Origin: Haplodiscus bocki
Taxonomy: Eukaryota
DNA: 64,000 nt
NCBI GenBank assembly: GCA_965655095.1
Contig: CBFHFQ010000029.1
Span: forward strand, 62,001 to 126,000
Direction: 5' to 3'
Both the position numbers and the translations under genes were made by a program. The notes beneath the pieces are model-generated. The model was not told the DNA's origin. It did not search any database and saw nothing but the letters and a program-made list of their open reading frames with translations. Positions 4,431-64,000 of this stretch are shown here, one piece after another (the first letter of the stretch is position 1; every line of letters starts with the position of its first letter).

Positions 4431-4544
4431 CTTACTTACAATCATTGTTCATGGAATGTAGTTGTTCGATATTATACTTTCCAAATGCAACTTTTTGATA
4501 TTTTCCACAGTCTTTTTTATACATCTCCCTTAATTAGGTTTTTA

Positions 4545-19339: not shown

Positions 19340-19700
19340 TTCCACCAAAATGAAGCAAATTTGCTGTAGAATGGCGTCTGGAACAATAGGAAGTCTCATT
19401 ACGTTCAAAAATTGGTTCTTTTTATTGAAAAAGTAGATGGGTTTTTCAGGAATGAATTCTCAGACTTTTGGAAATCGCCAAGATTAACAAATTTGCATTA
19501 AAATGCGCCTGGAATGGTAAGAATTCTCAAAACGTTCAAAAAAATTGGGTCTTTCCAGAAAAAATAGTTGTGTTCTTCGAAAGAAAACTTGAATTTTTTC
19601 AAAAAACCCAAAGGTAGCAACTTTGCTGGAGAATGCGTATCGAATGGTAATATTGCGTGGAAACGTCATTTCCGCCTTTAATGTGAAACATTATTAGCAA
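19340..19700. repeat. Diverged ~130-bp internal repeats, probably part of a non-autonomous interspersed element
   Basis: An AAATTTGC..AATG.G....GAA.GGTAA...ACGTTCAAAAA block recurs at ~19357, ~19489 and ~19619. Confidence 0.45.
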
Positions 19701-21019: not shown

Positions 21020-21453
21020 CCTGGAGAAGGTGCATGAGTTTTTTTTGGGAGAACATCTCGGAGACATTCTTAGAGAACTTCTTATAGATCTTTTCAGGAA
21101 AGTTCTCGGAGAAATGTCCGACAAGTTGACGACCAAGCTGAAGGAGAAGTCCCAGAAAAGATGTCTCAAAAATTGCCATAGGTGCTTTTGGAAATGTTCT
21201 CGGAAGCATTTTTCGAGAAGTTCTCGGAGAATTTCTCGGTGAAGTTTTTGGAGAAGTTCACGGAGAATTCCTCGGTGAAGTTTTTGGAGAAGTTCACGGA
21301 GAATTCCTCGGTGAAGTTTTTGGAGAAGTTCACGGAGAATTCCTCGGAGAAGTTCTCGGAGAAGTCCTCGGAGAAGTTCTTGGAGAAGTTCTCTGAGAAA
21401 CGTTCGGAAAACTTGTCAGAGATGTATTCGGAGAAGTTCTCGGAGAAGTTGTC
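21020..21453. repeat. 12-bp minisatellite (TCTCGGAGAAGT) with a 36-bp higher-order unit, truncated by an assembly gap
   Basis: Directly visible; GAAGTTTTTGGAGAAGTTCACGGAGAATTCCTCGG occurs three times from 21241. Confidence 0.9.
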
Positions 21454-21653
21454 NNNNNNNNNNNNNNNNNNNNNNNNNNNNNNNNNNNNNNNNNNNNNNN
21501 NNNNNNNNNNNNNNNNNNNNNNNNNNNNNNNNNNNNNNNNNNNNNNNNNNNNNNNNNNNNNNNNNNNNNNNNNNNNNNNNNNNNNNNNNNNNNNNNNNNN
21601 NNNNNNNNNNNNNNNNNNNNNNNNNNNNNNNNNNNNNNNNNNNNNNNNNNNNN
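21454..21653. other. Assembly gap (200 N)
   Basis: Run of N; its length equals that of the second gap, so the size is probably nominal. Confidence 0.99.
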
Positions 21654-22199
21654 TATCATTCAAAAAAGAGAATTTTGAGATCCCTAGATTGTTTAGTCTT
21701 TTCGGAAGTAATCTAAAAAAGCGTAAAAAGAAACTGTTTGTGGGAAAAATGAATGATCTGACAACTGTAATGTGTCTATATATATATAAAAGAGGAAAAA
21801 ATTTGTAAACCTATTTTTTTTCAGTGCACAACCTTGTGCAAGGAAATCAAGGAGATGGTCTGAAACTGTTACTAGCGAGTTTGAGCGGTGATTTCTGTAT
21901 ATCAGAAGAGCAAGTTTTAGTAAAGGTGAAAGTTTACACGGGAAACGGATAAAGTGACAATCAAAAATTTTTTTTGGAAACTTTTGCGGTCTTCTTCGAG
22001 AACTAATCAATAATTCAGTCGGTTTAGTCTCCGATTTTGTGGCCGTTTCGATAATGATTGTTTTTCTGTGACATCAAAGCTTGGGAATATTTGTTTTGTT
22101 ACGGGCTGGCTGTTTATCTGTTTCAATTTTTGGTTTCTTTCATGACGTAAACAGTTAATTTGACATTGATTTTTACAATTTCTATTGATTTGTGATTAG

Positions 22200-25827: not shown

Positions 25828-26421
25828 TCAATAACTCTGGAATGAGTCAACACCACTGTGATGAGTGTATGGTTGCCGGTCAAAATGAGCTTCTGGGACC
25901 GACAATTCACTTACCTCGTCTGTAATATTGTGTCGAGTCTCATCATTCACTTTTGATACGCCTAGCGTACCACTGTTTCCAGTTGCGTTTTCAAAAGGAG
26001 TATCAATCCCTACATGTTCCCTACGTTCTGAATTTAAAGACACGCTTGTCACATCCCGTCCCCAAGATGCATTTATTGACCTAACTGCTAATTCATTTTT
26101 AGGAGCAACAATGTTATCGACGGCGGTCAAAATTGCATTCTGTATCCTATCTTCAACTGTATCAACAATATAGTTCATTTCTCTATCGATCCTTTCATTA
26201 AAACACCTCTCTAGAGTTTTCACATTCATCGCGTTTCAATTATCAACTGAACTGTTACTAAAAGTACCAACGGTAAAATCCCGGTCATTGGAGCCTTCAT
26301 TAACCACATTATTTTCTTGTCTCTCACTAGCAGCGTTGCCAATAACTAAGTCTTGATCGAAGTCATCTAATTGGCTGAGAAGCCTTTTGTTTGACTGCCT
26401 TTTGTTGCGAGTGGAAACCGT
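25828..26421 (-). pseudogene. LTR-encoded ORF ((M)VSTRNKRQSNKR...), decayed, running out of LTR B
   Basis: ACG (presumed mutated ATG) at 26421 is in frame with ORF 26229-25828. One internal TGA near 26236; otherwise open through the LTR end at 25857. Confidence 0.55.
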
Positions 26422-28842: not shown

Positions 28843-28853
28843 CACCCCCTCAA
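28843..28853 (-). promoter_or_regulatory. Polypurine tract TTGAGGGGGTG
   Basis: Abuts the 3' LTR. Confidence 0.9.
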
Positions 28854-31800
28854 TGATGCTGTACTGATTGACAAAAGAGGTCACATCTGAACTGATTGAA
28901 CTTGGGGCGGCCAAGGGCTTTAGTCAAAATATCTGCAATGTTCTGATCCGTTGGTATATATCGTAACTGAATGACTTCCCGCTCCACAAGGTCCCGTACA
29001 AAGTGATGTCTGATGTCGATGTGTTTGCTTCGGCTGTGTGTGATTGGGTTTTGAGCAAGCTTGATCGCCCCGTGATTGTCACCTTGGAGGAGAATAGGGC
29101 CACCTAGATCTAAGCCTAAACTCTTTACAAGAGACAAAAGGTAGACACATTCTTGAGAAACTAAAGAAGTACTCATATATTCTGCCTCAGTCGAAGATAA
29201 TGCTACCGTTTGCTGTTTACGGGAAGACCAACAAATCACACTACTATCATCAGAAATTCTAAAACAATAGCCACTCGTGGAACGCCTATCATTGGGATCC
29301 CCTCCCCAATCAGAGTCACAGAAACCAACTAACTTGAGGCATTCACTATGCTTAAAGACAAGTCCTAAGTCAAAGGTACCTTTCAAGTAACGAAAAACTT
29401 TCTTAGCTAAAAGCCAATGATCATGAGAAGGATTCTTAAGTAATTAAGACGAAACTACAAAACTCAAATCGGGACGGGAAACAACTGAGAGGTAATTCAA
29501 TTTTCCAACTAAAGACATATACAATGAACGAATTTTAGACAAATCTTTGAAAGTATCGGATTCCAAATCAGGACAAGAACTTTTGTCGATTCTAGTATTT
29601 GCTGTCATAAGGAGATCACAAGGATTGCAATCAGACATACCAAAGCAAGACAATAAGTCTAAAATGTAAGACTTTTGTGAAAAAGATATTTTACCAGGTG
29701 ATTGATCAACTGAAACACCCAAAAACCACTTCATTGAACCTTTGTCTTCAATCTTGAACTTTTCGGAGAAACACTTCTTGAAAGATTCGGCTAAATCAGA
29801 AGAAGTTGAAAAGTATATTATATCATCAACCCACACACATATGAATAATCTGTTACCACTCAAATCGCTCTTGGAGTAACAACAACTATCAATCATTGAA
29901 CGTGTTAGACCGAATTCACTTAAAAACTTATCGAGGGTTCTGTTCCAACAACGTCCGGCTTGTTTTAAACCATAAAGTCCTTTTAACAACTTGCAGACTA
30001 ATTTCGATCCCTTTCCGGGAATTTCAAAGCCTGGAGGTTGTTCTACATAAACATCTTCCTCTAAGTCCGCATTTAGATAGGCCGAACTAACATCAAATTG
30101 AAAAACTTCACAATGAAAATGAGTAGCAAGTGCTAAAAGCATACGAATTGATGACAATTTAGCTGTAGGAGCGAATGTTTCTAAATAGTCACTGCCAAAA
30201 ATTTGATTAAAACCTTTCGCAACATAACGAGCTTTATACTTGACAATTTCACCGTTCTCATCTTTTTTTCAATGCAAAGACCCAACGCCCACCTAAGGAC
30301 TTTTTGTGTGCTGGAAGCTCACAAAGTTCCCAAGTCTTGTTATCTACTAATGAATTGAACTCTTTGGTCATCGCTTCTAACCATTCGTCTCTCGATTGTG
30401 ACCTTTTAACTTCCTCCAAAGAGTTAGGGACCGCTTCACACGAAAAACATTCAACAAATGAAACGTTCTCAGAATTATCAATAGGACAACCATACCGCTC
30501 AACAGCTTTAACATGGCGACCGCTACGTGTTCGGAATTCCGCATAAAGATCAGGATTTGAATTTGAAGTCGAAGACTCTGGCACAGGTGAAGTCTCTTGA
30601 GTGCGTGAATCATCATTTTCAGCAACCGATTTCAATGGCTTAGGAGACACTTGTTCTTCTTCAACATCTAAGGAACTCTTGGGTTCTGGAAGAAAAACAG
30701 TCTTCTGAAAAACTGCTTCCAGAGCCAAGAAATTCCTTTTCGTTAAATGACACATTTCTCGAGTGACTAATCTTACCAGTAACTGGATTATACAAATAGT
30801 AGGAATCATGAGTGCGACCATATCCAACAAAGATTTCTTTGACAGCTTTAGAGTCCAACTTTTTCACACCCACTTCGAGGAATCGGAACGCCGAGCAACC
30901 AAAAACTCTCAAGTTTGACAAATCTGGCTTACGACCATAAAATAATTCAAAGGGAGTCTTATTGGGAGGCAAGCTACAACTTAAACAACGATTCGTCAGG
31001 TAAAACGCCACATCAACGGCTCTCACCCAAAAGGAGTTAGGCAAATTAGCTTGTTTCAAAAGACACCTAGCCATGTTTCCAACAGTTTGCCAACGACGCT
31101 CAGCAACACCATTCTGATGCGGGGAATAAGGGGCAGTCATTTCCCGCTTAATGCCTTGCGAAAAACAAAACTCATCAAATGCTTTGTTATCATACTCGCC
31201 TCCACCATCAGACCTCAACGTCAAAGACGAGAATGTCTTAGGTACCCCTTCATCAATACAAAACTGGCGAAATTTTTCCAAGACTTCTGACTTATGTTTC
31301 ATGAAATAAGCACGAGCGAAGCGACTGTAGCTGTCAATGAAGCTCACAACATACCGATGTCCACCTAAAGAGGTAGTTTCCATTGGACCCCTAACATCGG
31401 AATAAACCAATTCCAACTTCGAAGACTTTCGCAAAGCCAACTTAGAACTGGGAGGTTTAGGATTCAATTTGTTTTCAGCACAAATGTCACAAAAAGACTC
31501 CGAGAAACTTGAATTGTGCAATTTCATTCCTTGAACCGACTTTGATAACTTTTGAACATCGCGTTTGTTATTGTGACCCAATCTGCAATGCCAAAGATCA
31601 AGATCAACTTTACACGTGCTAGAAAAGTTCGAAGAACAAACTGGAAAAGCTTTAGTCACATACAAGCCATTCCTTTGAACAAAAGGAAAAGAAACTTTAT
31701 CAGAACAATGAAGCTCACAAGTATCATCAAAAACAACTTTCGCACCCTTTTGACCAAGTGCACTCACACTCAACAAATTTCGCGAATGATCAGGAACATA

Positions 31801-31930
31801 AAGGCAGTCACTTAAATTCAGCACATGAGATACACCTCGTTTGTCAAGCAAAAAAATTTTGGCAACACTTTGCCCTTTCACAGGTGAAACACTGTTATTT
31901 GCATTCACACAAATTTTTGAAGAAACTTTT
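28850..31930 (-). pseudogene. pol: copia Pol (partial protease, integrase, RT, RNase H), frameshifted
   Basis: LYVPDHSRNLLSV, WHCRLGH, VYSDVRGP, RSDGGGEY, PHQNGVAER, YKARYVAKGF, LYGLKQAGR, WVDD, CDSDWGG, SSTEAEY, KHIDIRHH, ADILTKAL. Confidence 0.95.
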
Positions 31931-32014
31931 CGAACAATCAGAACCACAATAGAAAGAAAACTCACAACTCTGCGAAAAATTAGTCTTATTCTCAGACTTT
32001 TTATCCAATTTTGA

Positions 32015-32757
32015 CTTTTGAAAACACTTAGACTCATTGTGTCCAAACTTCTTGCAAAAAAGAGCACTGTTTAACTGTACAAGAACTTTTCATATGCCCG
32101 CTCTTGTTGCAGCGAAAACATTTACCGGAAAATTTCTTAGAATTATCTCGCGAAACAAACAACGCTGCGTCTGACTTAGTGTTACGAGTTACCGCAATCT
32201 TTCAATTTCTGCGAGTCCGCAAAATTTTTGAGAGCCTTTTTCAAATCAGAAAACGGAGTGGGAGTTTTTGAGAAATCGTGCACCGTCTTAAAATACTCAT
32301 AGCTATCAGGCAAACCCTTAAGAACAACGGAAACTAACAACTTTTTTGAAATCTTCTCCCCTGCTACTTCTAATGAAGACGAAAGAGTCTCGGCTCTGAT
32401 CAGGTAGTCCGTCATCTCCTCAGCTGGCTTCAACGACAGAGACGTTAGCTGCTCAAGCAAGTTCATCACACGCGGCGTCTCTGAACTGGAGAAGTGTGCT
32501 GTCAACCGCTTCCATGCTTCTGGCCCATTTCCTTTGCATTCTGACTTCAACATCATGATAGACCGTTTGTCCAAACACTGCACAAGTTCAGCCCAAATGT
32601 TGTACTTCTCGTCATCGTTGGATGCGTCAGTTCCCAACAGTTGTCCTCGCAGCTTTTTGGTGTGCATGTAGCCTTCAAACTTTTCGCTCCAGTAGGCGAA
32701 GTCATCTTCTTCCCCAGAGAACTGAACACATCGTCGTTTCTCTGCTTCTGTTGCCAT
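32015..32757 (-). pseudogene. gag: copia Gag with two CCHC zinc knuckles (frameshifted)
   Basis: ORF 32757-32182 (W..K, VLKGLPDSY), then CFRCNKSGHMKSSC and CSFCKKFGHNESKC in shifted frames. Confidence 0.9.
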
Positions 32758-33012
32758 TTCCTTGCCGCAGATGAAACAAATTTTTTGATCAGTACACTTA
32801 CTGAATCGAATATCCTTGTTCTAACAAAAAAAACACGCTAGCTAGCTGGTCAGGCCTTTACACCTCTTACCAAAAAAAACTGCTCCAAAAAAATTGGTTC
32901 CGTTGAATCTGCTTCTTCCAAAATACACTGTTGGGTTCTCACCAAAGTTGTTGAGTCAAAGTCCAGTCCAGAGGAAAAATAAATCGGCTATTCTAAACAA
33001 AAAACAGGGGGC

Positions 33013-47200: not shown

Positions 47201-47918
47201 TGCTCAAAAACTAAACTAAAGCCAAAAAAAATTGTTTTACGTCTCCCAGGTTGGTATGTGACGGCTAAGTATTAGTCTAATATTTGGACAAAAATGGGAT
47301 ACCGGCAACATACACAAAACTCGAGTTATTGTATAAAGATTTGTCTTTTTCGGCAAAACACAAATCAAGGTCTAGAAGTACAAAGAGGTTTTTAACAACG
47401 TCTCAAAAATTGCAATTGGTATCGGTGATGTTTAAAATTGAGGAGGGCAGTTTTAATAGATTTTATGGAAAGTAGCAAATTGCTACCAAAAGTTGTGTAA
47501 AAAAACGAGTCACTAAAAAGATTCGAACTTCCGTGGGTGGAAAATCCATGCAATGCGTTATATTTTATCACGTCTATGGATAACTTAATTCGCCCGCAGT
47601 TTAATTAATAGGCCTGTGGCTAATTATAGCAACTGCTTTGAATTGAATTTATGTAAAACAGTTGATTTAACTTTTGAAAAATTTGTGAGGGAGCACACAC
47701 AACAACGAATGCATAGTTTACCTTGCTGATCCACATAGAACTAATTGATTGAATTATCGGGCTCATATTCAAAAGCTTGATTGAAATAAAAGCATAAATT
47801 GTAATTGAAATTACGTTACGAAGCTTACATCTTCATTGAAGTCAACATTTTTAAAAACAAATCTGACTTCCTAGTTTTTATTAACAAGACTTTGGATATT
47901 CTTGGGTTTTGTGACGAG

Positions 47919-48515
47919 AATAATAAACATGTATGCGGTGTTGCGGTAACACGGACAGTAACGCGCAAAACATAACACACGAGATTGAAAATGAACACCA
48001 TGTCGACATAACACATACACAAGACTGAAAAAAATTACGTCGACATACACATACAAGGGACTGAGAAAAATTATGTCAACATAACAGAATATGTGTATTT
48101 ATTCTAGTCTCTCTCTTTTTATTTCGTCTCCGTATAACCTAGTGGTATTTGTGACATTGAATAAAGTTAAGGCTGTGCTTACATAGTCGTAGTGTGTTGT
48201 GGTTCACTACTATCCAACGTCCCACTGTCTATGTCGTCATCAAGCACAAAAGCTATATGGAGTAACTGTCCATGTCTTGAAGCTTGAAAAAGTAGAATTG
48301 ATCGATGGGGTATCCACCAGGAATGCTCACTCGATAGGCAGCCGAAAAGCTAGACCCAAAAGTTGACCAGTGGATATTTTTTGTCCTAAACGAAAACACG
48401 ATTTCTCAGAAATATGTACTGCTAGCTTCACTGGTATGATGAATGGTACTTAGTTTTTTAAAGATATCTCCATAATTATACTATTATTTGTATACGAATT
48501 CGTGTATTTATACTT
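47919..48515 (+). repeat. Polinton left TIR
   Basis: Reverse complement of ~62954-63623, with substitutions and indels. Confidence 0.93.
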
Positions 48516-49399
48516 ATTTGTACAAGTATTTGATTGGGTGTGCATAAACAAGAACTGAGGAATTTATGTCGACATAATAGAAAATGTATATTTCTTTTTG
48601 ATAGACTTGAAACAATTTTAAGTTGTCTTTTATATGAAATTGAACTTTTATAATAAATAAAATGGATGAAGAGTTACAAAAAGCCAATAATATTATCAAA
48701 AAAAATTTGGTTAACCAAGATATGATATAGTCAATTTTTTAGATAAAATTGAAAATAAATATTTAATGATTGAAATAAATGATGATCATTCACCATCAAT
48801 TGTTTTGTATCACAGTGATAAAAATGATGATAATGTAGAAGAAATATAAGAAACTTGTCATTTTGGCAATCAATTTGGTGTTTCACTTGATAAAAATGTT
48901 ACCTGTATCGATTTGTCTTCATATTTCATTGGTGAAGATGAATCAAATTCATCCACATTTGGATGCATGAGTAGATAAATTATAAAAAAGCGTAGAATTT
49001 TCTGACATGGGAAATGAATTTGAGATAGTATTTTAAAAAAAGTGACGATGTATTTTTGGTAATTGTAATTTGAGATAATAATGTATACATATATGAGATA
49101 GATTATTATAAATTTTTATCTGAAATTTATATACTTGATTAAACATAAAACCTCTTTGTCGAGCAAATGTTATTTGTTTATTTTATTCATGCTTTTACCG
49201 CTAATTGTCAAATTAGTTATTTCAAAATTAGTGATATTTGTAAGATTAAAATCATATACACATATATGATCAAATGTTTGAATTTTTTATTAAAACACTC
49301 TCTAATACAATTAACAAATTCATATTCGTGTTCGCATTTTTATACTTACTTTTCACGTTGGTTTCTCATATTCTCATTACGACAAGCTCTATAAAAAGT

Positions 49400-52300
49400 T
49401 TTGTTTTTAATATAGTTATCAGGGTTTTTTTCTGTTTCACATTTATTACATTTTTTGATTTCCTTTTGAACAGGTTTTTCTATAATTACATTGTCTTCTG
49501 TTTTATAATAAGGGAGCATATAAGCAAATTCGTTTTCAGGTTGCCGTTTTAATTTGTTGATTTCTACTGAATATGCTCCTAAACGAGTTATTTTACTTAA
49601 ACAATCTTGACAACTTTTGCTTATTTAACAATTGAAACAATTCATTTCTGTTTTTATTACACAATCAACACATTTTTTTGTTTTCATCACAATTTTTACA
49701 ACCAACTTTACGATGTGGTATGTTAATACCGGCAAATCCACAATTCCATTTCAGTTTTGATACATTTTTAAGTTTTTTAGTTTGTTCCAGATCAAGAAAG
49801 TCTTTAAAAGTTATATTTTTGAGGTTTTGGTTGAATCCTTTGAAAGTTGTCTTTTGATATAATATCCCGCATTCAATATTAACAATGCATCAATTTTGGA
49901 GCTAGAAACAACCCGTACACGATTCCTGCGTTTTCACCATATACGTTCTTAGATTGAAAAAGGTTTTTGCCAACTAATCTTTTATCCTTAAGCAGCATAT
50001 CATAGTCGTTTATATGTATACATACACTAACGGTGTCCGCAGAAATTTTTAAATCCGTCTAGGGCTAAAATACCATCATTCAATATTCTTCTCGCATGCG
50101 GTAAAATGAGAGATCCAAATTTAAATGGTTGACTATTGATTTTTTCACAAATACTGTTGTCGTCTACACCATCATGATCTTTAACGTTTACCGAATGATT
50201 ACCGTTTTTGAGGGTGATAATTTCTTTAACTCTATCATCATATTTTGTTTTCATCCACGCCTCTCACACAGATTTTAAAACTTCGTGAATATCTCATCTG
50301 ATACATCTACCATATACGCCGTTTGACATTTTTTTACATAAATCTTACAAGATAGCTTTAATCTGTACTTTATCTTCGTTTCCTTTTGCTGTCATATCTA
50401 GAACGAACTCTTCAAAAGGATTGTAATCGAGATGATCACAAATAAAATGTTCAAAAATCCCTGAACAATGCCACCTCTTCTAACAACTTGTTCAATATCA
50501 ACACTAGTTAGATGTTATGTAATATCTCCATTTCGAAATAGGTTAACACATTCACATTTGTTTTTGCTTTCATTGTAGACGTCTTCTTCAATAGTCATAT
50601 GTTGTAGAATCAAGTTTTCGGGATTATAGTATTTGGCTCTAAAGAATCCCGTTTTAGTTAAAAGAGTTCATTCGCCAGTGTTGAACAATTCACAAAATAC
50701 TTCACTATCTTCTGGAGTTTTTGCTTTTGCTGTTTCTATCGCGGGCCACATCGAATCAAGATGAGCTATTGCCGAAGGATATAGACTATTATAATCGTCA
50801 TTATTCAGGGGGTCTGATTTATCGATTTTGTTTAGTTATTTCGAAATTGGCAGGCTAGATAATTTGCTCGTTATAGTTTTCAAAATGATCTTTGTTTACT
50901 GTTCTATAGTCATCGAATTTTTTTTCATGTTTTTTGGTGCAAAGTTTCTTAATCTTATCGATTTCACCAAAGTATATCTCGAATAATGTTGATATTTCGT
51001 GTTTTTTACCAAAATACTTTTTTAGAATGTTAACAATTTGTTTGAATGAGGTTGACACAAATTTACGCTTTAGAGCAATAACTCTACCCCCATGCACGGT
51101 TTTATGAATGAAATCTCGAACAAATTTTTTTTTGGCGTTCAGAACTTTTTCTCAGATTTTTTAACATATATTCTTATACAAGACCACGCTAGAGTTGATT
51201 CTGTATTTGAGTTTTTAAACGAGACGCCCGTTAATTTTTGAAATTCATTTCCATGTTTCGCTACTACTGCAACCAATCCTAACACATCATCAATGAGATA
51301 TGGTTTCCATAATTTTTCTTGTTCTTTGTAATTTGATAAAATTATTAGAATATGATCGATTTCACCTTTAATTAGTTTTTGTTGAAAGTTGTATTCTTTT
51401 TGAATTTTCTATAAAGATCCTGAGATATGTACATTTGAACAAACGAATTTCATGTATTGCGGTTTTTCTTTATCATTTTCATAAACAGTTCCAAATCTAA
51501 AGCTTAATTTTCAAAATCTTCGAGACGTTTTTTTGATTTTCGTGTTTTTGTTTGTATTTTTTTTGGTGGTGAATTAAGAACAATAGCATTAGAAAAAACC
51601 ACTAGCGCTGTGACCGAATAGTTGATATCTATAAGAGGATATTTCGAAATCGCTGTTCTTATTTTTGGAAAAATTTGGCTTGCCTTTATAGTTTGTGGTT
51701 ATAAATTTAATCATATTCAGAACAGGGTTGTTGTTAACGCGATAGAAAATATGAACATGTTGTCTTTCAATTTCTATTTCTTTTTCTATCAACTCACCGT
51801 TGTAACAATCTTTTAAACGATCTAGGTGATAACAACCAGCCGCATACGCTTCACAAAATTCTTGATAAGGCACGTTAACAGTTTCAAGATCGAAAAAAAA
51901 TACCGCAAACAAACAATCTTTTCCGTTAGACTAAGGAAATTTATATTCAACAACCTGTTTTAGAAGGTTATCAGAAATATGATTGGGTTCAAAATAAAAA
52001 TTGTTTTCTTTTTCTTTGATTGCGTCTGAGAAAGTTGTTTTAACTGTTTTCCAAATCGCACCAAAATGATTTCATGGATATATAAACATGCTCTTCGTTC
52101 TTTTAGAGAAAGTGGTAGACTTCTTCTTTGTTTTGGATCATAGACATCTAGGTCAACATTGGGTTTTTTACAGAAAGGCTGTTTTTTAGCCCTCGTCATT
52201 ATGTCTTTATTTCTTTAAGATTTTTTGATAAAGTCACGATATTGTTGAGAGAAATCTTTTTTGTATTGAAAGTCTAAACATTTTCTGAAACATTTGTTTT

Positions 52301-52950
52301 CCTCAGGTATATAACACAGATTTCCTCGATATTCAACGATTTTTTCAAAACGATGACAACCGCCTCCATGATTACTTCGTTTTATTTTTGTGAATATTTT
52401 AGTATATCTGATTAAAACTCCTGTAAAAGTATTGTTCAAGGTTTCATCATATTTATCATTTATTTTCTCAATCCAGTTGTTTAGAGCCTTTACATCTCTG
52501 AAAAATGTGTTAACAGAAGTAGTGTCCTTGTCGTTTTTCCTGATTTCACATTTTAATTCTAACGTGTGTTTATCTCTAACAACATTGTTAACACCATCGG
52601 AAATTGAATCGTTTTCAAAAAGAACCACATTGTTCTCAGCGAGATCTAGAATATTGTTTAAATCAGACTCAACATCAATATCTCGAGGAATATCATGAAA
52701 ACCAAAAAGATTTATTTCACCAAAACGTCTAATATCTCGAATTTTTTGGTTATTGTTTTTTGAAATCTTTGTTTTTGTTATTGAGTCTGGTGTCTAATTC
52801 GTTTTTGGAGTCGTTCAAAACATCGAGGTTGTTATTAAGAACGGTTATCGTTGATTTCCAGAAATTTCTTTATTTGTTTGTTATCTTTGTTTTTCTCAAA
52901 AATCTTGTTAGTTCGCTGATTTCTTTTTCGGTGTTGTTTGTTTTATTGTT
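49400..52950 (-). pseudogene. polB: Polinton protein-primed DNA polymerase B
   Basis: NKCFRKC, FFDLET (ExoI), GHSASGF (ExoII), DDVLGL (ExoIII), HGGRV, DYNSLYPSAIA (motif A, ~50765-50797), KKMSNGVYG (motif B, ~50310-50335), ADTVSV (decayed motif C, ~50025-50040), KTTFKGF, KR...LPYY. Many frameshifts; ends approximate. Confidence 0.92.
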
Positions 52951-53122
52951 TACAGTCTGTATTTTATTTTCAATTACTTTGATCGATTCATTAGTTTGTT
53001 TCTTTTCTTTTTTGTTCTCTTATAAACTCAATTATAATATGTAAATTCGTTGAGTTTTTTAATCTTTTGGTAAAAAACACTATTTAAATCAATATTGAAA
53101 AAAAAACACAAAAAATTTATGC

Positions 53123-53425
53123 TTGAAAATGGATGAAGAAAACCAAGTATTTAAACTTTGTCGCGTTTGCGGTTTTGAAAGAGAATACGATGAGTATCAT
53201 AGATTATATGCTGCTTGTGAGAAATGTGCTAGTATACGCTGTACTAAACACTATCAAAAAAATAGAGAAAAATTATTGGAAAAATCTAAATTATATGGGG
53301 GAAGCAATGAAGAAAAATTTAAACAAGGCAAAAAATCATTCAACACACACGCTGAAGTCATAGAAGATCAATATATTAAAATTATTACAATAACTGAAAA
53401 ATTGAATGCTTTGTGTGTCGATTAA
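53123..53425 (+). CDS. Polinton small Zn-ribbon protein
   Basis: CRVC...CEKC followed by a basic helical tail (YQKNREK). Confidence 0.5.
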   Translation: MKMDEENQVFKLCRVCGFEREYDEYHRLYAACEKCASIRCTKHYQKNREKLLEKSKLYGGSNEEKFKQGKKSFNTHAEVIEDQYIKIITITEKLNALCVD

Positions 53426-53479
53426 TATGTATGTTGGAGAAAAAGAAAAAAAATTGAATAGATTTGTTTTAATAACTAA

Positions 53480-54077
53480 ATGGCAGTCTTTAATGATATA
53501 TAGTGCTAAATTGGTGACAGATTCATTACTAAAGAACAATGGACCAAACATATCTGTTCTAGTAAACATTTGCATAGAGAAGTCAATGGATACTGGCCAG
53601 CCTATTTTCCACAAAGAAAACTAACCAGAGATGAAGGTATGAAACTCGAGAAAGCTTTTTGGGAGATGATATTTGTAACCGATGAATGTGTAGAAGTGTA
53701 CGATTTCTTTAAAAACATTTTACAAGATGTGTACTAATATAAATAACCATGTCCCAGCACGCCCGTGCTTTGATAATCCAGATGAAGAAGAGCAATGGGG
53801 ATGTGGATATAGAGATGATATGATAGCTCAGATTAAACAAGATTTATAGAACAAAACTTTCACACTTCAAGATCAATGTAAAGATGATCCAATTGATATT
53901 CTCGAGAGCAGAATTAGATTGTGACTTAATATTAATAGAAAAGGCCAATGTCCTATACCTGATAATCTTTATGATTAAGAATATAACGATGAAGGACTGG
54001 ATATTTCTGTTAGCGGTGCAAAGATATTTCCTGAGAGTGGAGAATTAGAAAAAGTTATTAGATATACTCAGATGTAA
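53480..54077 (+). pseudogene. Polinton ORF with a decayed N-terminal C2H2-like Zn finger
   Basis: MAVFNDI*C*IGDRFITKEQWTKHICSSKHLHRE...; its TAA stop abuts the integrase ATG. Confidence 0.4.
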
Positions 54078-54926
54078 ATGAGTCAAAAATAATTAAGATT
54101 TTTCTAAACGAAATTTCTAGCAATTGACCAAAAAAGAATTATGTCGGAAACAGAACAGATGTTTATCATATTGATGACATTGGAGTTTAGATGTATTAGA
54201 CCTAAAAGATTACGGTCCTGAGAACAATAGAAGATACAGATATGTTTTAGTTATCATTGACAATTCTCAAAATTTGGTTGGAGAGTACCTCTCAAAAATA
54301 AAAGTGCTCAAACAAAAACAAACTGTTTCGGAAAACTTTTGATAAATTCAAAAAGAAAACCAAAGTTAATCGAAACAGATCGAGGTAAAAAATTTTATAA
54401 TAATATATTTCAAAATTTCCTAAAAAATAATGACATTCAACTCCATTATAGAAATACATCTTTAGAAGCTGTTTATGCAGAAAGATTTAATAGAACTATC
54501 AGAGGTCTTCTTAAAAGACCTATTTTTGAAAATGATGATGGCAATTGGATTGATATCTTAGCTACAATAACGAAACAATAAAATAATAGAATACATTAAT
54601 CGACTAAATTGACACCGATTCAAGCTAGTTTAAAAAACAATGAAGGATATGTTTACAATAATTTATTAGACAAACGAAAGAAAAGGAATCCAAAGTTTCA
54701 AGTAAACAATCTCGTTCGAGTTGCTGATTTGAGGAAAATGTTCTCAAAAGGAGATACAACTAACTGGTCTTAAAAATTGTATAAAATCAAAGAAATTATT
54801 GATGATATTGATCCGAGTTATAGTCTTGACAATTTAGCAGAACGTTTTAACGAAGCTTTACTGAAAAAGACAGAGTTATCAGTGAAAGAAAATGATAGTG
54901 TTATGAAAAAATTAAATTTAAAGTAG
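54078..54926 (+). pseudogene. Polinton retroviral-like (rve) integrase
   Basis: WSLDVLDL, YVLVIIDN, IETDRGKKF, AERFNRTIR, LTPIQAS, FSKGDTTNWS; stops and frameshifts. Confidence 0.92.
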
Positions 54927-56036
54927 ATCGAACATTCGTTGGCCATGTGAGCTTATGCTAACCAATCTATTTGTTAAAACTAAAACGTAACCATAGATCC
55001 CAGCAGGAACAACTCCATCAAGTGTAAATTCTACTTTAACCGATTGACGACTTTCAAAAATTTTCTGATATCGTAAATCGAAAGCGTGAATATTATAACC
55101 AATATTATCACCGCCATTAGGCGATCTAAAATCATCTTCACTTATAGATGGTTGGAGTATATTATCTTTGTGAGAGCTCTAAATGCTTCTTTATATGACC
55201 ATACCCTTGACTATAATCATCGTCGTTGTAATTCAATGAAATACCATTTTCGGGATATTTTGAGGTTCCAATAATGCAATGGCAAGAAGTTACAAGCACC
55301 TTGTAGAAAGTTTGGTTGTTTAAATTTTGATCGTGTTGTCTGTGGTTTTGTTGGAAGACTACATAAATCCATGTAGGCACAATAATACCTTCTTGGACGC
55401 CTAATTCAAAAGTCCAAAATTTTTCCACTTCCTTCATGAAAACTGATTTTTCTGGATAATGAAGCTGTGTTGGAGTCTTCTCCGTAATCTGGCTCGTAAA
55501 TTTAATATATTCTTCAAGACTTGGCGTATAATGCGGTACATACCACTCTATAGCAATAATTTTATTTTTAGCATTGTTAATTGCGTTATATCTTGTTTAA
55601 AACGGAGTTGTCAGTTTTTCCTGTCATTGTTAACTTAAATCCGAGACCAAAAATTCCTGTTTCCTGGTGTTCAGCGAGTCCAAACACATCTCTTAGATAA
55701 ACTCTAACATGATATATACCTTTAATTTTTCCTTTATTAGTCAACTCACGTTGTCTTCTATCACGACTATGGTCGAAACCAATAGAGACATCATCAGATT
55801 CTTTACGCGATGTTAGTAGTTTATACATTAAAGAAACTATGTGAGCATGGTTCATATCTTCCAAATGCTTTCCTGAAGTAGTTGTTAACTTATAAACACT
55901 ACATAAAGCAATTGGAGCTAGATTAACTAACCTTATATCATCACCATCAGCATATCTATGACCAGTAGCAGCGTGTAATACGTCGAAACTTAATTTAATA
56001 CAAATAATTATCAAACTAAAATTTCTATCTTCTCTA
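54918..56036 (-). pseudogene. Major capsid protein (double jelly roll); 5' end lost in the gap
   Basis: PTWIYVVFQ..Q...N...F...IG..KYP..I.LNY..DDYS..Y and the C-terminal FDLRYQ..VKVEF..YGYVLVL pattern resemble Polinton MCP; position among the morphogenesis genes. Confidence 0.72.
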
Positions 56037-56236
56037 NNNNNNNNNNNNNNNNNNNNNNNNNNNNNNNNNNNNNNNNNNNNNNNNNNNNNNNNNNNNNNNN
56101 NNNNNNNNNNNNNNNNNNNNNNNNNNNNNNNNNNNNNNNNNNNNNNNNNNNNNNNNNNNNNNNNNNNNNNNNNNNNNNNNNNNNNNNNNNNNNNNNNNNN
56201 NNNNNNNNNNNNNNNNNNNNNNNNNNNNNNNNNNNN
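56037..56236. other. Assembly gap (200 N) inside the Polinton
   Basis: Run of N. Confidence 0.99.
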
Positions 56237-56263
56237 ACTTCTAGGTTGAAATTTTAAAATTTT

Positions 56264-56813
56264 TCACCAAAACATTTTAATTTTTTTATGTTCATGTTTA
56301 TAAAAAGATTCATTTTTATTTTCATCAACATATTCAGTAAATTATTACTTAGACTTTCATATTCTTTTTCATCGGTTATATTATTTGTAAAGATTTTCTG
56401 TGTAATTTATCGAAAACATTAATGATTTGTTGACCTCGTTCATATTGTTTTTTGCATTTATTGTATTTGTTTATGATTATTTCTCTTACTACTTTGCTAC
56501 CAATTGATAATTGCAGTTGATATTGATATAGCTATCAAACCGATTCCGGTAAAAGTCAAAGTAAAAGAACTCGATGTTGTGGCAAAAACAACAAATGTAT
56601 CGAATGATTTTAATATTGTAGTTATTGTTTTGTTTTTTTTATATTCCCTTTTGATTTGTTGTTTTTATCTTTGAAGTATGTAATCATTTTTTTAATGTTG
56701 TTAAACGAATTCTTGGAGGAACTGACATCGTTCAGTTTTTTTTCTAATCGTTGTTCTAAATCAATTATTTTTAATGGTGCAGATGGGTACAATCTATCTG
56801 TCTTCTGTTCCAT
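56264..56813 (-). pseudogene. Putative membrane-active virion protein (LYPSAP, coiled coil, hydrophobic hairpin)
   Basis: MEQKTDRLYPSAPL..LEQRLEKKL.., then after a frameshift FVVFATTSSSFTLTFTGIGLIAISISTA. Confidence 0.55.
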
Positions 56814-57247
56814 TTGTATAGCATAATATAAACTAAATTGCCTAGGTAAAGACATTTTCCGGTGTTGTAAAAAGTTATCGACTCTGGTAATGTTGATAGA
56901 GCTTGTTTATAATTTTTAGAAGCAGCTGCTGTAGCTATTTTTGCTGTTAAATCTAAGCCTCGTCCTGGGTTACTTAATACGTTTTTTTGCCATCTTTTTG
57001 ATATTTTGAGTCCTTTTCTACCTAGATTCTTGAAGAAATCACCAAGACCTTCTGCTTGAATCAGGTTATCAGAAACAATCATTGATTTGCGTTTGTCAGA
57101 AACCACACATTTTCCAAAAAATAATCTTATCTCTTCATCAGTTTTTATATCAAAAGTTTTTGTTTTTTCTCCAACTTTGTTTTTTGCACCAGATCTGTGT
57201 CTACAACCAACACAAAAACTATCGTTTTTAAATTTTTGAAAGCTCAT
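56771..57247 (-). CDS. Zn-ribbon plus amphipathic/basic core-protein-like ORF
   Basis: FCVGCR...GKCVVS then AEG/LGDFFKNLGRKG and an Ala-rich helix. Confidence 0.55.
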   Translation of the reverse strand: MSFQKFKNDSFCVGCRHRSGAKNKVGEKTKTFDIKTDEEIRLFFGKCVVSDKRKSMIVSDNLIQAEGLGDFFKNLGRKGLKISKRWQKNVLSNPGRGLDLTAKIATAAASKNYKQALSTLPESITFYNTGKCLYLGNLVYIMLYKWNRRQIDCTHLHH

Positions 57248-57255
57248 TTATTAGT

Positions 57256-58379
57256 TCAAATTTTAATCATTTGTAATGTATAAGTAAACGTTTCTCCAAT
57301 AAAAGTAACTTCTTCGTTATTAATATCTTCTGGATAAAAAGTTATTGTTTTCAAAACAGATTTATCTATTTTTTATAATGAATTGTTTCAGTCTCGCAAA
57401 ACACTTTATAACCAATCGGTTTATCCAGAACAAAACTATAAAGTATTGGTTGTCGAACACCTTTCAAAACACTTCCACCAATAACATCTCATTTGAAATG
57501 AGTTTTGTCTATAACAGTTAAATTCCTATTTTTTCTTTGTAGGACTCATTACCAAAATCTTTATAATACCAATATGGAGTGAAGCCCAAGATTGTATTAA
57601 AAAACGATTTCTTACCGAACCTCCAAGCCATGATTTTCGGGCCTAGTCTCAACTTCGTTATCAAAGAAACGTTATCACTATCGATAATAATTGAACCAGG
57701 TAGGTCATGTTTATGATTTGGTCTCATCCGTCCTCTGATTTTAAGTTCAATACTAAATCCTCTTGAAAGAACTATAGACAAATCCTCTAATGTATATGCA
57801 CCTGGAGGAATTTTAGATGTGATAATTTTGAATTAGGCTGTTTCAATATTAATTGAATATCTTCTTCCTTTAAACCAGTTAAACTTCTAAGATAACTTTC
57901 AAAATCTCGATATGGTGAATAAACATAATCCATTATTAAAAAAATACCCATCAGTCTGGCTCTTTTCCATCCATAGTTTTCCATATGTTTCAATAACTTT
58001 TGGTCCAAATGTTTTGTGTTCTAATTCCTCGGATGTGATGGTTGCAAGACCGAGTACTTCTGCTACGTTATCGTTTAAATGATTGTATAAACATTGCCGT
58101 CAACATATCATGTATAAGGTGCAAAAATATTTTTTTCTTGAGCAGTAGTAAAAAGAGAAATGTAAGCCTCTAAACTTCATAATCTAATCCTATCATCCAA
58201 GATGCTTGACTTGGGATTGGTGGTTTGAAATGATATAGTTCTGTTGGTTTAGTCAATTTAAATTCTATTGTTTCTTCTGCTTTTTTGTGAGTTTGTTCAA
58301 TTAGCATTTCAGAGATTTTAGTTTTTGGAAGTAATAAATCTTCGGTCTCATTTTTAGGTTGAATCATGTTTAAGTTCAT
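57256..58379 (-). pseudogene. Penton-like minor capsid protein, copy 2
   Basis: N-terminal ETIEFKL..HFKPPI...WMIGL..EV; C-terminal DVIGGSVLKGVRQPILYSFVLDKPIGYKVF...TITFYPED...GETFTYTLQMIKI. Confidence 0.7.
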
Positions 58380-58403
58380 TCAAAATTCAAATAAGTGCGA
58401 ATA

Positions 58404-59483
58404 CTATGTTTTAATATATTGACAAGTAAAACTTATCGTTTCTCCACTAAAATCAATGGGTTTCTAATCGTCATCTTCTGGATAGAATCTAATATGAGAT
58501 AGAAAAAATTTGTTTACGTTTTTAAAAAGTATGACTCTAGGTTCTTTATATATTTTATGAACGGGTGATGATGAGAGACCGAAGCTATTTAAAATATGTT
58601 CTCGAAAACTGTTGACTATGCTTCTATTAATACAATCACATTTCAAATGAACTTTGTCATTTCCTGTAACATTATTAGGTCTGTCGCCTTTATATGTACC
58701 TGGGATCAGTTGGGAGAAACCTAGAATATCGCTTAATGCAGCTGAATGGATTGAGTGAAACCTAGAAAAACATGAAAAAAGATTTTTTTGGAAACATATT
58801 TGTTTTATTTGTGGTTAATTTTGATTTTAGTCTAACATCATCAACTTTAATTTTTACTTTTACCACTTTAGGAAACAAAGAATATAAAAAAATTAATATC
58901 AATGATTTCATACATTCCGGGTGGTAAAGTATATCCTATATTCGATGTCGGAAAACATTTTAGGTCTAATTTATCTAATCTTTCATCATATGTCAGTTGG
59001 TATCTATAAACCATATTTTCAAGATCGCTGTTTTTTAAATTTTTTAATTCTTCAAATGTCTCGTTTTTAAAAGACTAGATAAAGATTTTTACCAAAACTA
59101 GATAAAGAGTAGTCTTTCGTTAAAAAGTATACCTTTTTTCTATCTTGTTCAACATGTATTTCCATATCATTTTGAGACCTAAGCTCTAATAATTTAATTA
59201 GTTCGTCAATGGTTTTTTCAGCTGATTTGGCATTCCAATGACCTGGTGTAGTGATTGAAAACGCTTGTTTGCAAAATTAATAATAAAAGCAGAAATTGTA
59301 CACTCGAACGAACTCACTGCCAGCAACCATTTTCTTTCTTCAACTAAAGTTGTTGGTGGTGAAAAAGAAAAAGTTTTCATTTGCTTATCCGATTTAAATT
59401 CAATCGTTTCTTGGGGTTTTGTCTTTTTTGTTCGATCAACGTATCAGTATGTTTTTAAATAAAAGTACCAATTCTTTATTCAT
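58404..59483 (-). pseudogene. Penton-like minor capsid protein, copy 1
   Basis: N-terminal ETIEFK..TFSFSPP...WLLAVSSFE; C-terminal KVHLKCDCINRSIVN..EHILNSF..HKIYKEP...IRFYPEDDD*KPIDFSGETISFTCQYIK. Confidence 0.72.
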
Positions 59484-59696
59484 TTAATTATTCCAAATCC
59501 ACTTGCTGCTACGAATTTAAGGATTTTTTCATTGTTTGGTGAAATATTTTTGTTTCATTTTCTAGGAGTTCAATTACCATTTATTGTATTTTGCTGAATT
59601 TCTTTTGTTTGTTCACTTTTTGGAGTGAATCTAACACTGTTATAAATAGTTTTTTTCCTAATGTCATTTATCTTCAAAGAAACATCAACATTAATT

Positions 59697-60100
59697 TATA
59701 ATTTGATAGTTTAAACTCAAGACAGCAGATTTAAAATCAATGACTAACATTTTTGTTAAGTAAAATTTTTAAAAACAATAAATTGCACAATAAAAGTCTT
59801 TTTTATTTTTTAACCTTGAATTTTGTATTCTGAATAGAAAGAAAGACCATTTCGTTTTATAATATACCTAGAAAAATTCTTTCGACAAACAACACCATAA
59901 CTATCAAAATAAATATCATTTGTGTAACAAACCCAATGATTCCCTTTTGAAGGGTGTAGATTAAAATCCCTATATCAGATTCAGATGTCCATCTCGTAGA
60001 CATATACCGCCATTGTCTAATCCAAAAGAAGAAAGTACTTGTTGTTTTCTTATACCTAATGTTGCTTTAATATAGAAATTGTATTTTTGAACAAAATCAC
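59697..60100 (-). pseudogene. Adenain-like (Ulp1-family) maturation cysteine protease
   Basis: NLHPSKGNHWVCY...YFDSYG...KIQG...FYCAIYC (His, Asp, Gln, Cys in the expected order). Confidence 0.85.
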
Positions 60101-60543
60101 TGAACGACGTCATTTACTCGCTCTGATAAATCACCTCTACGTCTTGTTGTAAATAAAAAAACTTCTAAAACTTTTTCAGCATTAGCATTAATATCAAATA
60201 AACCTTTATCATAAAGTATTTGTATCGTCGTTTTTACAGCTTTTTGAACTAAGACCTCTTCTACAGATTGTTTGTTGTATTGTAATTTAATTTCGTTGTC
60301 AGCTTTTTCTGCTTTTGATAAGTGACCGTTCATTTTAAACAATTTTTCACCTAGATAAGCTTTGTTTACAACGTCTTCGTTTTTAATAGTTTTAAAAATT
60401 GTTGTTATTTTTTCATCTTTTCTGTGAGTGTCGTGTATTTCGAGTTTCAATGGGTTAATATTTAAATCTTGTAATTTATCTCTTTTAGAAATAAAGTTAT
60501 CAAATTCGCTTTCTCATAAATTGTTATAAGAAACATGAGCCAT
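60097..60543 (-). pseudogene. Polinton ORF of unknown function
   Basis: 117-aa open stretch with an upstream ATG at 60543 separated by one stop; DVVNKAYL resembles a fibre-associated repeat. Confidence 0.4.
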
Positions 60544-60852
60544 TATTTAACAAAAATAAATGGGGTTGTATACAAAAATTGATAAACAATTAGATAAATT
60601 TTATGATGTTGTTTCTTTGAACACGTCATTATCAAAGCGAAGCTTTTATTTAAAAGTTTTAGTTTTATCTCTTTTAATTTTTAATGTCTTTATGATTATC
60701 AAAAAAATGTTTCTATAAACAAGTCATCCTTTTTTAAACTTTTAATGTATTTGTGATTATTGAGCGTTTTATTTAACGTATTCATAATCCTTTCACATTT
60801 CTCTTTGCGGGATATTTTGTTTAAATCTAATCTATTCATCTCTTCAACAGCT

Positions 60853-61101
60853 TTAGAATCTGTTTTTTTTATCTTCTAAGAATTGTATTTTGTTATCTTT
60901 CTGTTCTAATTCAATTTCCATAATTGATATTGTTTCACCCATAATTTTTATTGCTTGTTTAAAAACTTTACTTTGAATTAAAGCGTTTTGAACCAACTGA
61001 GATCTCGTTGAAAATGATTCTTTGTTGTACTTACCAATTGTTTGTGAAATTTCGTTTTGTATATTCACATCATTTATAATGATTTCTATAAACCCAGCCA
61101 T
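60853..61101 (-). CDS. Polinton coiled-coil ORF of unknown function
   Basis: TAAATG start; MEIELEQKDNKIQFLE heptads. Confidence 0.35.
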   Translation of the reverse strand: MAGFIEIIINDVNIQNEISQTIGKYNKESFSTRSQLVQNALIQSKVFKQAIKIMGETISIMEIELEQKDNKIQFLEDKKNRF

Positions 61102-61528
61102 TTAATTAGACGAAAAAACTTGTTCAATAAGAACACTTCCTTGAGTAGCGTTATCATTATTTGGATCATCACCTTTTAATTTATGTTTTTTTATTTTAAC
61201 TGGTTCTTTTGAGGTCTTTTTGAAGTCATTTGTGGTCATTTTGAGGTCATTCGAGGTCATGGTTTGAAGTCTTCTGATTTCTTGTGTTAGTGTTTGATGA
61301 TTGAAATACTCTATAAGGTGAATTCATTTTTATTTGTCTCCTATACCTCTATAAGTTGGAGGTAGATATTGCTAGTTCTTTAGCTATTTCAGATTGTTTT
61401 AATTTTGGACTGATAGATTTCATTTCCATGAATTTTGCCATTTTGTCTACCTCATGTTGTGTCATTATCAAACCAGCATTGAGATCACCGGTTTTTGCTA
61501 TTTGTTGTACCGAAAAGGTGTTAGTCAT
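61102..61528 (-). pseudogene. Helix-turn-helix DNA-binding protein
   Basis: PKLKQSEIAKEL(A)ISTSNL*RYRR, followed by short ATGACCTC repeats. Confidence 0.55.
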
Positions 61529-61579
61529 TTAAAAACAAAAATAAGATAATGATTTTGCTTCTTTGTGATATTAACAAAG

Positions 61580-62145
61580 ATGAAAATTAATTATGACAAA
61601 ATTTCTAATTAAAAGGATTATTATTGTGAAGTATGTGATGAATTTATCAAAACCAAGGGCAATTACAAACATCTTAAATCAAGTATTCACAAAAAGTTCG
61701 ATAGATGCAAACATTAAGAATTAAATATTGAAAATCCTAACATAAACGACATAGTTGAAATATTTTATGCTTACATTATAGAACATAATAAAAAATTTGA
61801 TTTTTACCTTATTAAAAGTCACTTTAAATTAGTTTTCAATGATAATCAATATAGTACACATGTCATGTCAAACTTATTTGATAGGAAACAAAGGTTGCTT
61901 GGAAGAAATTTTTAGAAAAAGCATTTGATGATTTTAAAGACAAAGGTTATAATTTCAACCATACTGAAGAAGTGAATATTCTAACAATAGCTAATAAGAT
62001 GGATATGTCATATAATTTCTATATTAAACATAACATGCATCGTGTTGAATGGAAAATAAATTCTATGATTAACAAAAACAAAGCTTTGGTCAATAAAGTT
62101 AATCGTAATTGGAGACATCCTTTGAATAGAAAATTTAAAAGTTAG
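61580..62145 (+). pseudogene. C2H2-like Zn-finger protein, paralog 1
   Basis: YYCEVCDEFIK...KHLKSSIH; NKKFDFY; G..F...E.NI..M.Y..YI. Confidence 0.6.
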
Positions 62146-62250
62146 CGTGTTTGATTATTGTAAAACTTTTAAGTTTATGTTCACATGACTTCGTGAAGTA
62201 TTTGTACACATATTCTTATAATTGTTTGAATACCATATTATTTCATGTAA

Positions 62251-62700
62251 ATGGATGATTATTATTGTAACTTATGTGGTAAAACAATTAAATTGAAACA
62301 TAAGAAGAAACATTTAAATACTAAATCACATGTGGATTTATCCGAGTATATAAATCACAAATTTTGCGCTAAAAAAGCAGAACTCGTCAAAATAGAAGAT
62401 ATATTACAAAAATATGTCAATATTTACAATAAAAAGTTTGAATTTTACCGTATTATATGTAAGTGGAAATTAAAGTTTCTTGATACTACTATTTGTGTTA
62501 AATCTGAAGAAATACACAGTAGCGGTTCACGTTGTGGGCTGATAAGATTTTTAATGAGGAAAATTGAACATTTTAGAAGACAGGGAATGAGATTCTCTCA
62601 GATATTAGACTTGAATATCACTTTTCTAACAAGTCTAGATCTTATGACATATGAACAATATATTAATCAAACCTATGCAGATGGTAGAAAGGGTTCGTAA
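62251..62700 (+). CDS. C2H2-like Zn-finger protein, paralog 2
   Basis: YYCNLCGKTIK..KKHLNTKSH; NKKFEFY; G..FS.I..LNI..MTY..YI. Confidence 0.65.
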   Translation: MDDYYCNLCGKTIKLKHKKKHLNTKSHVDLSEYINHKFCAKKAELVKIEDILQKYVNIYNKKFEFYRIICKWKLKFLDTTICVKSEEIHSSGSRCGLIRFLMRKIEHFRRQGMRFSQILDLNITFLTSLDLMTYEQYINQTYADGRKGS

Positions 62701-62953
62701 TAGAAAACTATATGAAAGTCTGGAGCTCGTAAAAACGTTAAGAGATGTAGATCTCACCTTACATATGGGGCGTAAACAAATTACTCTCGATGAAAGATGA
62801 AATATAAATACTCACATATATGAATACTATCACGATTCGTATATTATCTCAAAATCCAGAATATGTTAAAAGTCATTGTAATGATTTAAATAATCCATTT
62901 CATTCTGCATGTCGTAAAAGATATTTATTTAATTTTCCACAATATTGATATAA

Positions 62954-63623
62954 AAGTAGTGTAATTACACGAATTCGTGTACAAATAAAACTATTTTTTT
63001 CTCGAAATAAAATTTTCAATTCAAGTAGGTTTACGTCAGTTTTTTTTGAAGTCAATCGAATAATTATTATTGGAGATATCCCTAAAAACTATGTACTATT
63101 CATCATACCAGTGAAGCTAACAGTACACATTTCTGAGAAATCGTGTTTTCGTTTAAGACAAAAAATATCCACTGGCCAACTTTCGTGTCTAGCTTTTCAG
63201 CTGTCTATCGAGTGAGCATTCCTGGTGGATACCCCATCGATCAATTCTACTTTTTCAAGCTTCAAGACATGGACAGTTGCTCCATATAGCTTTTGTGCAT
63301 GATGACGACATAGGCAGTGGGACGTTGGATAGTAGTGAACCACAACACACTACCACTATGTTAACTTTAGTCAATGTCACAAATACCATTAGGCTATACG
63401 GAGACGAAATAGTAAGAGAGAGACTAGAATAAATACACATAATCTGTTATGTCGACATAATTTTCCTCAGTCTCACATATGTGTATGTCGACATTGAATT
63501 TTTTTCAGTCTAGTGTATGTGTAATGTCGACATGGTGGTATTTTTCAATCTTGTGTTTTATGTCTTGCTCGTTACTGTCCGCGTTACTGCAACACCACAC
63601 TATCGGCACAAATGTTTATTATT
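62954..63623 (-). repeat. Polinton right TIR
   Basis: Matches the left TIR and carries roughly 70 extra bp near 62995-63060. Confidence 0.93.
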
Positions 63624-64000
63624 GACGAGAATTCTAAGTTTTTTCTCCAATTTGGTTAAAGGGTCTTGAAAATTTTCAAAAGTTTTGCGTGTTTTTCCGA
63701 GAACAAATGACCGGATCTTTGTGAGAAATCACGAAAATGCAAGATTCCAATCGCAACAAAAACTATACGATTCCAATAAACAGCTAACATTGAGCATCTA
63801 TTGTGAAAAACGTTTCATGGCTGGTAATTTGCTAAAAAATACCGGCGATAAGTGTGAGAAAACGTCATTAACAGAGAACACATTTCATTCGAGGGAATTG
63901 ATTATCGTTGAAGACCTAGAACCATTCATAGTGGTGGCAGAATTTTTGTTTCGGCTAAAAGCGATGTTGCAGAAAATCCTACTGCAACCTGAAAGCAATT

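Follow-up and report, generated by a model that had tools for sequence, protein, structure and literature searches.

Polintons, or Mavericks (class Polintoviricetes), have been described with terminal inverted repeats (TIRs) of 100-1500 bp, target-site duplications (TSDs) of 5-8 bp and lengths of 13-25 kb (Jeong et al. 2023, 10.1101/2023.08.22.554363; Barreat and Katzourakis 2021, PMC8097293). In these elements a terminal-protein domain fused to the protein-primed polymerase pPolB primes synthesis and is released by a vOTU protease (Krupovic et al. 2024, 10.1101/2024.03.18.585575). Degraded loci account for 96% of Polinton loci in vertebrates (PMC8097293), some corals carry very high copy numbers (PMC11131425) and polymerase swaps between Polinton lineages are reported as frequent (10.64898/2026.10.13.758929). 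Adintoviruses show an OTU-like region before PolB (PMC8502044, PMC11071296) and are defined, among other traits, by a C-terminal chromodomain of the integrase (PMC11071296). Here we analyzed 64,000 nucleotides of the Haplodiscus bocki contig CBFHFQ010000029.1 (positions 62,001 to 126,000, hereafter the window), which contain a decayed Polinton element at window positions 47919-63623 (15,705 bp including a 200-N placeholder).

The element shares with Polintons/Mavericks a pPolB gene, an rve integrase, a double-jelly-roll capsid gene and, by eye, penton-like and protease-like genes, and its TIRs, its 6-bp TSD and its size fall within the published ranges. We consider it quite probable that the locus represents one old, dead Polinton/Maverick insertion, with a packaging ATPase that probably falls within the unsized assembly gap, and that its intact relatives are protein-primed, rve-integrating elements likely to form adenovirus-like particles. 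In such relatives the N-terminal domain of the polymerase would act as primer at the (AAT)2 ends and would then be freed by the vOTU protease, the integrase would insert the linear genome through a 6-bp stagger, and capsid protein, pentons, protease and ATPase would form and fill the virion.

The original prediction had described a complete Polinton-like virus with both TIRs, a matching TSD and convergent gene blocks, joined across the gap and no longer functional. The two TIRs, of about 570 bp each, were 87.8% identical over 582 alignment columns and differed by substitution at 40 of 531 aligned positions (7.5%), with indels besides. Both begin with AATAATAAACAT, and the doubled trinucleotide AATAAT stands at both element ends, whereas vertebrate Polintons end with (AGT)2, which has this doubled form in other letters, with (AG)3 or with (AC)3A (PMC8097293). 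The repeats are flanked by the 6-bp TSD GACGAG, and two random 6-mers of the same composition would match with a probability of about 4e-4. Mismatch-free contigs spanned both host-element junctions in runs from two samples of a single study, among which may be the source of the assembly itself. The element interior showed a GC content of 29% versus 36% in the rest of the window. These data bear out the predicted termini, and the matching TSD supports the assignment of both halves to one insertion across the gap, while giving no gap size. The Polinton identity and the loss of function were likewise supported: pPolB, the double-jelly-roll capsid and, weakly, the rve integrase were recovered, and pPolB alone carries 20 stops and several frameshifts; the element is a dead copy, incapable of its own replication, integration or packaging. 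Two parts of the description were not borne out. The completeness of the element is not supported, since its sequenced part contains neither the ATPase nor the gene that usually adjoins it and the gap cuts off capsid residues 1-42, and its genes do not form a single convergent pair of blocks but alternate as convergent, divergent, convergent and divergent. Polintons are organized in two modules, in contrast to the four alternating blocks of this element, in whose sequenced copy no ATPase was seen.

The polymerase was examined through its relatives. A 1205-aa protein (P0180) aligned end to end with the window pPolB (53031-49349) and matched PF03175 weakly (49.7 bits), while a search with a 192-aa polymerase piece yielded 19 relatives out of 393 candidates. 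Exonuclease I and II and polymerase A motifs occurred in all 12 long relatives checked and motif C in 11 of them; the C-terminus of the family is Cys-rich, with 4-6 CxxC in the long relatives. As in adintoviruses, an OTU-like region was recognized in these relatives at motif level only, the Cys pattern of vOTU being present in 10 and the His pattern in 12 of the 12. Scans of two polymerase relatives gave no HNH or VSR family. The predicted protein-primed PolB was confirmed, like the capsid gene treated below, through natural full-length relatives at 60-70% identity.

The capsid gene is interrupted by the assembly gap. A single full-length capsid relative covered positions 56035-54921 in three frames, residues 1-42 being lost at the gap. 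Of 1120 candidates obtained with the 147-aa capsid piece left of the gap, 890 were relatives; those listed were 64-74% identical, most of them matched PF21738, and 83 of the 120 listed measured 415-422 aa. The PF21738 match to the family capsid scored 41.6 bits. Structure prediction, which had been proposed as a check, was carried out on the relative P0012 from a 145-sequence alignment and returned a double jelly roll with a pLDDT of 72. The best PDB matches of this model were the capsids of iridovirus, PBCV-1, Sputnik and mavirus, with E down to 1e-14; against BFVD the top 50 fold matches, among them an adintovirus and a MELD entry, showed at most 14% identity. The predicted major capsid protein (MCP) was thus confirmed, and the modelled relative places it among double-jelly-roll capsids. 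The ratio of nonsynonymous to synonymous substitution rates (dN/dS) was 0.14 between the capsid genes of two related contigs, L001 and L002 (96 codons), and 0.24 between the window piece and L001 (148 codons).

The metagenome contig L001 carries capsid and integrase genes tail to tail like the window, with 76% identical DNA, and in both the integrase frame terminates at the MCP stop. No chromo family was detected in the integrase at E<=1. Since the frame ends at the capsid stop without a chromodomain, a trait by which adintoviruses are defined is lacking here. The integrase piece also matched models of the IS481 transposase (E 8e-6) and of the IS3 transposase.

Two penton-like genes, A and B, lie in tandem on the right side of the gap. 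Their best alignment score was reached by none of 100 shuffles, with identities of about 33-50% in blocks and differing middle parts, and both keep, by eye, the C-terminal motif series of published adintovirus pentons. The pair is likely to derive from an old tandem duplication. The two genes might instead not both encode vertex proteins, one being a repurposed diverged paralogue, or the pair might be specific to this copy; the restriction of identity to blocks would fit such a history, and no intact relative locus covering the pair was obtained. We regard this as unlikely, because the two genes are homologous in colinear order over their length, from the N- to the C-terminus, the published motif series is retained in both genes and family contigs match both penton regions, and because the paralogues are too diverged for a recent or assembly-made duplication.

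A packaging ATPase, which the original prediction neither listed nor remarked on as missing, was searched for with tblastn and with a hidden Markov model (HMM) of 87 long family ATPases, which returned only weak zinc-finger cross-matches in the sequenced element. The sensitivity of this search was adequate, because it picked up, at 20228-20720 of the window, a remnant of much greater divergence (E 1e-11). On contig L002 the genes follow the order ATPase end, 281-aa gene, capsid start. The ATPase piece of L002 gave 979 relatives out of 991 candidates, many matching PF04665, with a Walker A motif in 86 of the 120 listed. The family thus has an ATPase of the A32 type. In published Beta maps, known here as a machine-read layout, Hexon, Adintoc2 and FtsK adjoin. 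The same window holds a second, older Polinton remnant (18567-20720, minus strand), with an ATPase, a possible 281-aa-like gene and an MCP N-terminus (independent E-value 5e-4); it is about 30% identical to the family of the element and shows the L002 gene order toward a capsid start at 18749, its middle gene being weak (E 0.56 singly).

Because the gap falls where L002 and the remnant carry the ATPase block, the ATPase of the element is likely to lie in it. By L002 and the family lengths, the gap likely holds the ATPase and the 281-aa gene, about 1.9 kb in total, which would bring the element to about 17.4 kb. The other gap of the window also measures 200 N, so that the given length is likely a placeholder. 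Capsid and ATPase matches on contigs of equal size (673,718; 489,139; 280,965) give a weak hint of co-occurrence. Alternatively, this copy or its subfamily might truly be devoid of the ATPase and the 281-aa gene, as a helper-dependent deletion derivative packaged or copied in trans. Such a derivative would explain why a search able to find the distant remnant found no ATPase in the element, and only about 50 bp separate the end of the upstream gene from the gap. We consider it improbable, since the sole unsequenced place coincides with the ATPase site of L002 and of the second remnant, both gaps of the window are exactly 200 N, and the bases right of the gap match neither the MCP start nor the upstream spacer of L002. 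A scaffold fusing the halves of two insertions is very improbable, for, despite the absence of a listed contig across the gap, the highly repetitive nature of the family and the divergence of the TIRs, the matching TSD, the location of the genes flanking the gap on the same strand and in the same module and the exact junction contigs at both ends all speak for one insertion.

Some results weigh against the proposed single insertion with a typical Polinton gene set and an ATPase in the gap. No joint spanning the gap occurred among the 15 listed of 1978, the content of the gap being deduced, and the gene-order argument is based on one short contig (L002) and one decayed remnant. The integrase piece scored 24.2 bits against the Pfam rve model, under the cut-off of 32.6. 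The penton labels found no support in Pfam, PHROGs or the Atlas, whose scores for the penton fragment were <=0.81. Neither the protease region, with its broken frames, nor the membrane-active candidates matched a supporting Pfam family or PHROG, and for the latter no relevant PDB match was found. The catalytic motif order of published Adenains is matched by eye in the protease region.

The gene list of the original prediction stood for pPolB and MCP and, weakly, for the integrase, while penton, protease, helix-turn-helix (HTH), core-like and membrane-active genes had no supporting family match. The two penton-like genes and two of the zinc-finger genes were verified as homologous pairs (E 5e-16 and E 2e-9, respectively), with no profile support for penton. 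The gene content is less unusual than claimed, as duplicate pentons have been reported in the adintoviruses Adinto23690 and Adinto18043 (PMC11071296), zinc-finger genes in adintoviruses (PMC11071296) and membrane-active genes in the same group (PMC8502044).

The abundance of the family was evaluated by matching contigs to the window. In each of four runs 48,840-57,573 contigs matched at a likeness of at least 85% and 2,040-2,364 at 99% or more; since most of them fall below 99%, the family is very large and diverged. The summed contig depth differed about 50-fold between element parts, was unfit for ranking genes and was not used. A profile search counted 3,977 representatives at an E-value of 0.001, of which 342 were left at 1e-30, and among the cluster members read for 15 clusters a single one was named, as 'hypothetical protein'. 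A search for intact relatives in metagenomes, suggested at the outset, recovered full-length relatives of single proteins. No related locus was found in viral_contigs or genome_contigs and two short ones emerged from 47 pattern matches in metagenome_contigs, hence no intact full-length locus was seen. The family was not found in the papers searched and may be catalogued in supplement parts outside those covered; most of its motifs had no match in the part of the published Buck et al. catalogue that was searched, by exact strings in line-wrapped text. Literature searches also gave no publication on Polintons and Mavericks in acoels, on Polintons in Symsagittifera or on a Maverick integrase lacking a chromodomain, and a single one linking Polintons with Xenacoelomorpha. 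The element is thus a member of a large, apparently uncatalogued family, and the proposal of a distinct, possibly undescribed lineage is plausible, given the low identity of the BFVD matches, the lack of named members and the unmatched motifs.

The affinities of its parts point in different directions. The GFAE motif of the capsid and the order of the motifs downstream match by eye those of six published hexons of Alpha (Mayetiola-class) adintoviruses, AA/AB isolates. A first reading of the polymerase and virion genes as Beta class, based on the weak PF03175 score and on accessory-gene motifs, was dropped because these hexons point to Alpha for the capsid. In the polymerase, the ordered motifs YIP..CF.KC, GGR, IL..SKR.MN, YYGDTDSIYI and KND recur by eye in entries of the Buck et al. 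supplement that adjoin Meld12701 and Meld15865 (soil, trichomonad-associated), entries attributed to meldviruses by their position in the file. No exact family polymerase motif was present in the adintovirus entries of that supplement that were covered. The apparent peculiarities of the lineage would thus be the (AAT)2 termini, the integrase without a chromodomain and, by eye, the combination of an Alpha-like capsid with a polymerase resembling those of trichomonad- and soil-associated meldviruses. Tentatively, the family might constitute an undescribed, massively amplified and possibly active polintovirus clade of chimeric origin, combining an Alpha-type capsid module, two long-diverged pentons, a polymerase from the protist-associated (pPolB2/meldvirus-like) pool, (AAT)2 ends and an integrase without a chromodomain. 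If so, the clade would merit a family-level branch of its own, and its natural intact genes, numbering in the hundreds, would allow one to ask whether animal Polintons make particles with two vertex proteins.

Decayed Polintons are frequently encountered, and the present copy brings no new mechanism and has a gene content within the described range. Its value lies in pointing to a large family, apparently not yet catalogued, whose capsid, polymerase and ATPase genes occur in public assemblies in many full-length copies. Should the polymerase prove to be of protist-associated type, it would provide a further case of the modular exchange already known for Polintons. Because so many of its natural genes are intact, the family is also well suited to a search for expression or particles, the open question for animal Polintons.

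The features of the element are collected in Table 1.

Table 1. Features of the Polinton element and of its insertion site, in window coordinates (ORF, open reading frame; HSP, high-scoring segment pair).
Feature	Position	Strand	Basis or remark
Left TSD, GACGAG	47913-47918	.	Sequence
Left TIR	47919-48485	.	(AAT)2 start; repeated TGTC(G/A)ACA palindromes inside
Small broken ORF	48665-48975	+	Reading frames; no Pfam match
pPolB pseudogene	49349-53031	-	7 HSPs at 42-71% to 1205-aa relative P0180; 20 in-frame stops
Cys4 zinc-binding ORF	53099-53425	+	zf-UDP E 3e-4 (below cut-off); phrog_2255 E 4e-3
Broken ORF, C2H2-like motif	53406-54045	+	Reading frames; no family match
rve integrase pseudogene, without chromodomain	54045-54926	+	rve E 4e-5; end overlaps MCP stop
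MCP pseudogene	54918-56035	-	Residues 43-416 of relatives; three frames
Assembly gap, 200 N	56037-56236	.	Covers MCP start; likely ATPase and 281-aa gene
Candidate membrane-active core protein, broken ORF	56280-56830	-	Hydrophobic segment, 19-mer hydropathy 1.88; putative label
Candidate membrane-active protein ORF	56774-57247	-	N-terminal CxxC pair and amphipathic helix; putative label
Penton-like gene B, broken	57255-58379	-	Colinear with gene A, E 5e-16; motif order by eye
Penton-like gene A, broken	58400-59450	-	Homology to gene B; published-penton motif order by eye
Small basic ORF, putative 'core-like'	59450-59690	-	Reading frames
Putative adenain-like cysteine protease pseudogene	59760-60110	-	His, Asp, Gln, Cys motifs in order across frames, by eye
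Several broken ORFs	60100-61323	-	Reading frames
Short putative HTH-like ORF	61300-61530	-	Reading frames
C2H2 zinc-finger paralogue 1, broken	61580-62145	+	E 2e-9 to paralogue 2; zf-C2H2_jaz E 0.5
C2H2 zinc-finger paralogue 2	62251-62700	+	149-aa frame
Right TIR	63054-63623	.	Alignment with left TIR
Right TSD, GACGAG	63624-63629	.	Sequence

As regards the minor genes, the amphipathic helix of the 56774-57247 ORF showed a hydrophobic moment of 0.73, a value that 8 of 1000 shuffles also attained. A suspected likeness of positions 56903-57055 to cupiennin had no support in Pfam or PDB. The HTH and core-like labels found no supporting family match, and sequence searches of the PDB and of a phage collection returned nothing useful for the element proteins. 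Zinc-binding modules recur in the family, a CxxC pair being present at the start of 54 of the 87 long ATPases among the family proteins P0401-P0520. TGTC(G/A)ACA palindromes occur six times in or beside the TIRs (48001-48574, 63450-63532) versus once in the preceding 47.9 kb, and may be bound by a protein that the element encodes.

Outside the element, the window DNA is of eukaryotic type and rich in transposable elements. Apparent fragments of another Polinton-type PolB of a different class, resembling by eye an adintovirus PolB, lie at 419-4461 (plus strand), where P0180 gave no tblastn match at E<1. Open frames at 13429-13971 and 25828-26235 (minus strand) resemble pieces of repeated elements, and a short-period tandem repeat (20936-21810) lies beside the other 200-N gap of the window. 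Finally, a well-preserved Ty1/copia long terminal repeat retrotransposon with gag, integrase, reverse transcriptase and RNase H motifs occupies positions 28850-32820 on the minus strand.

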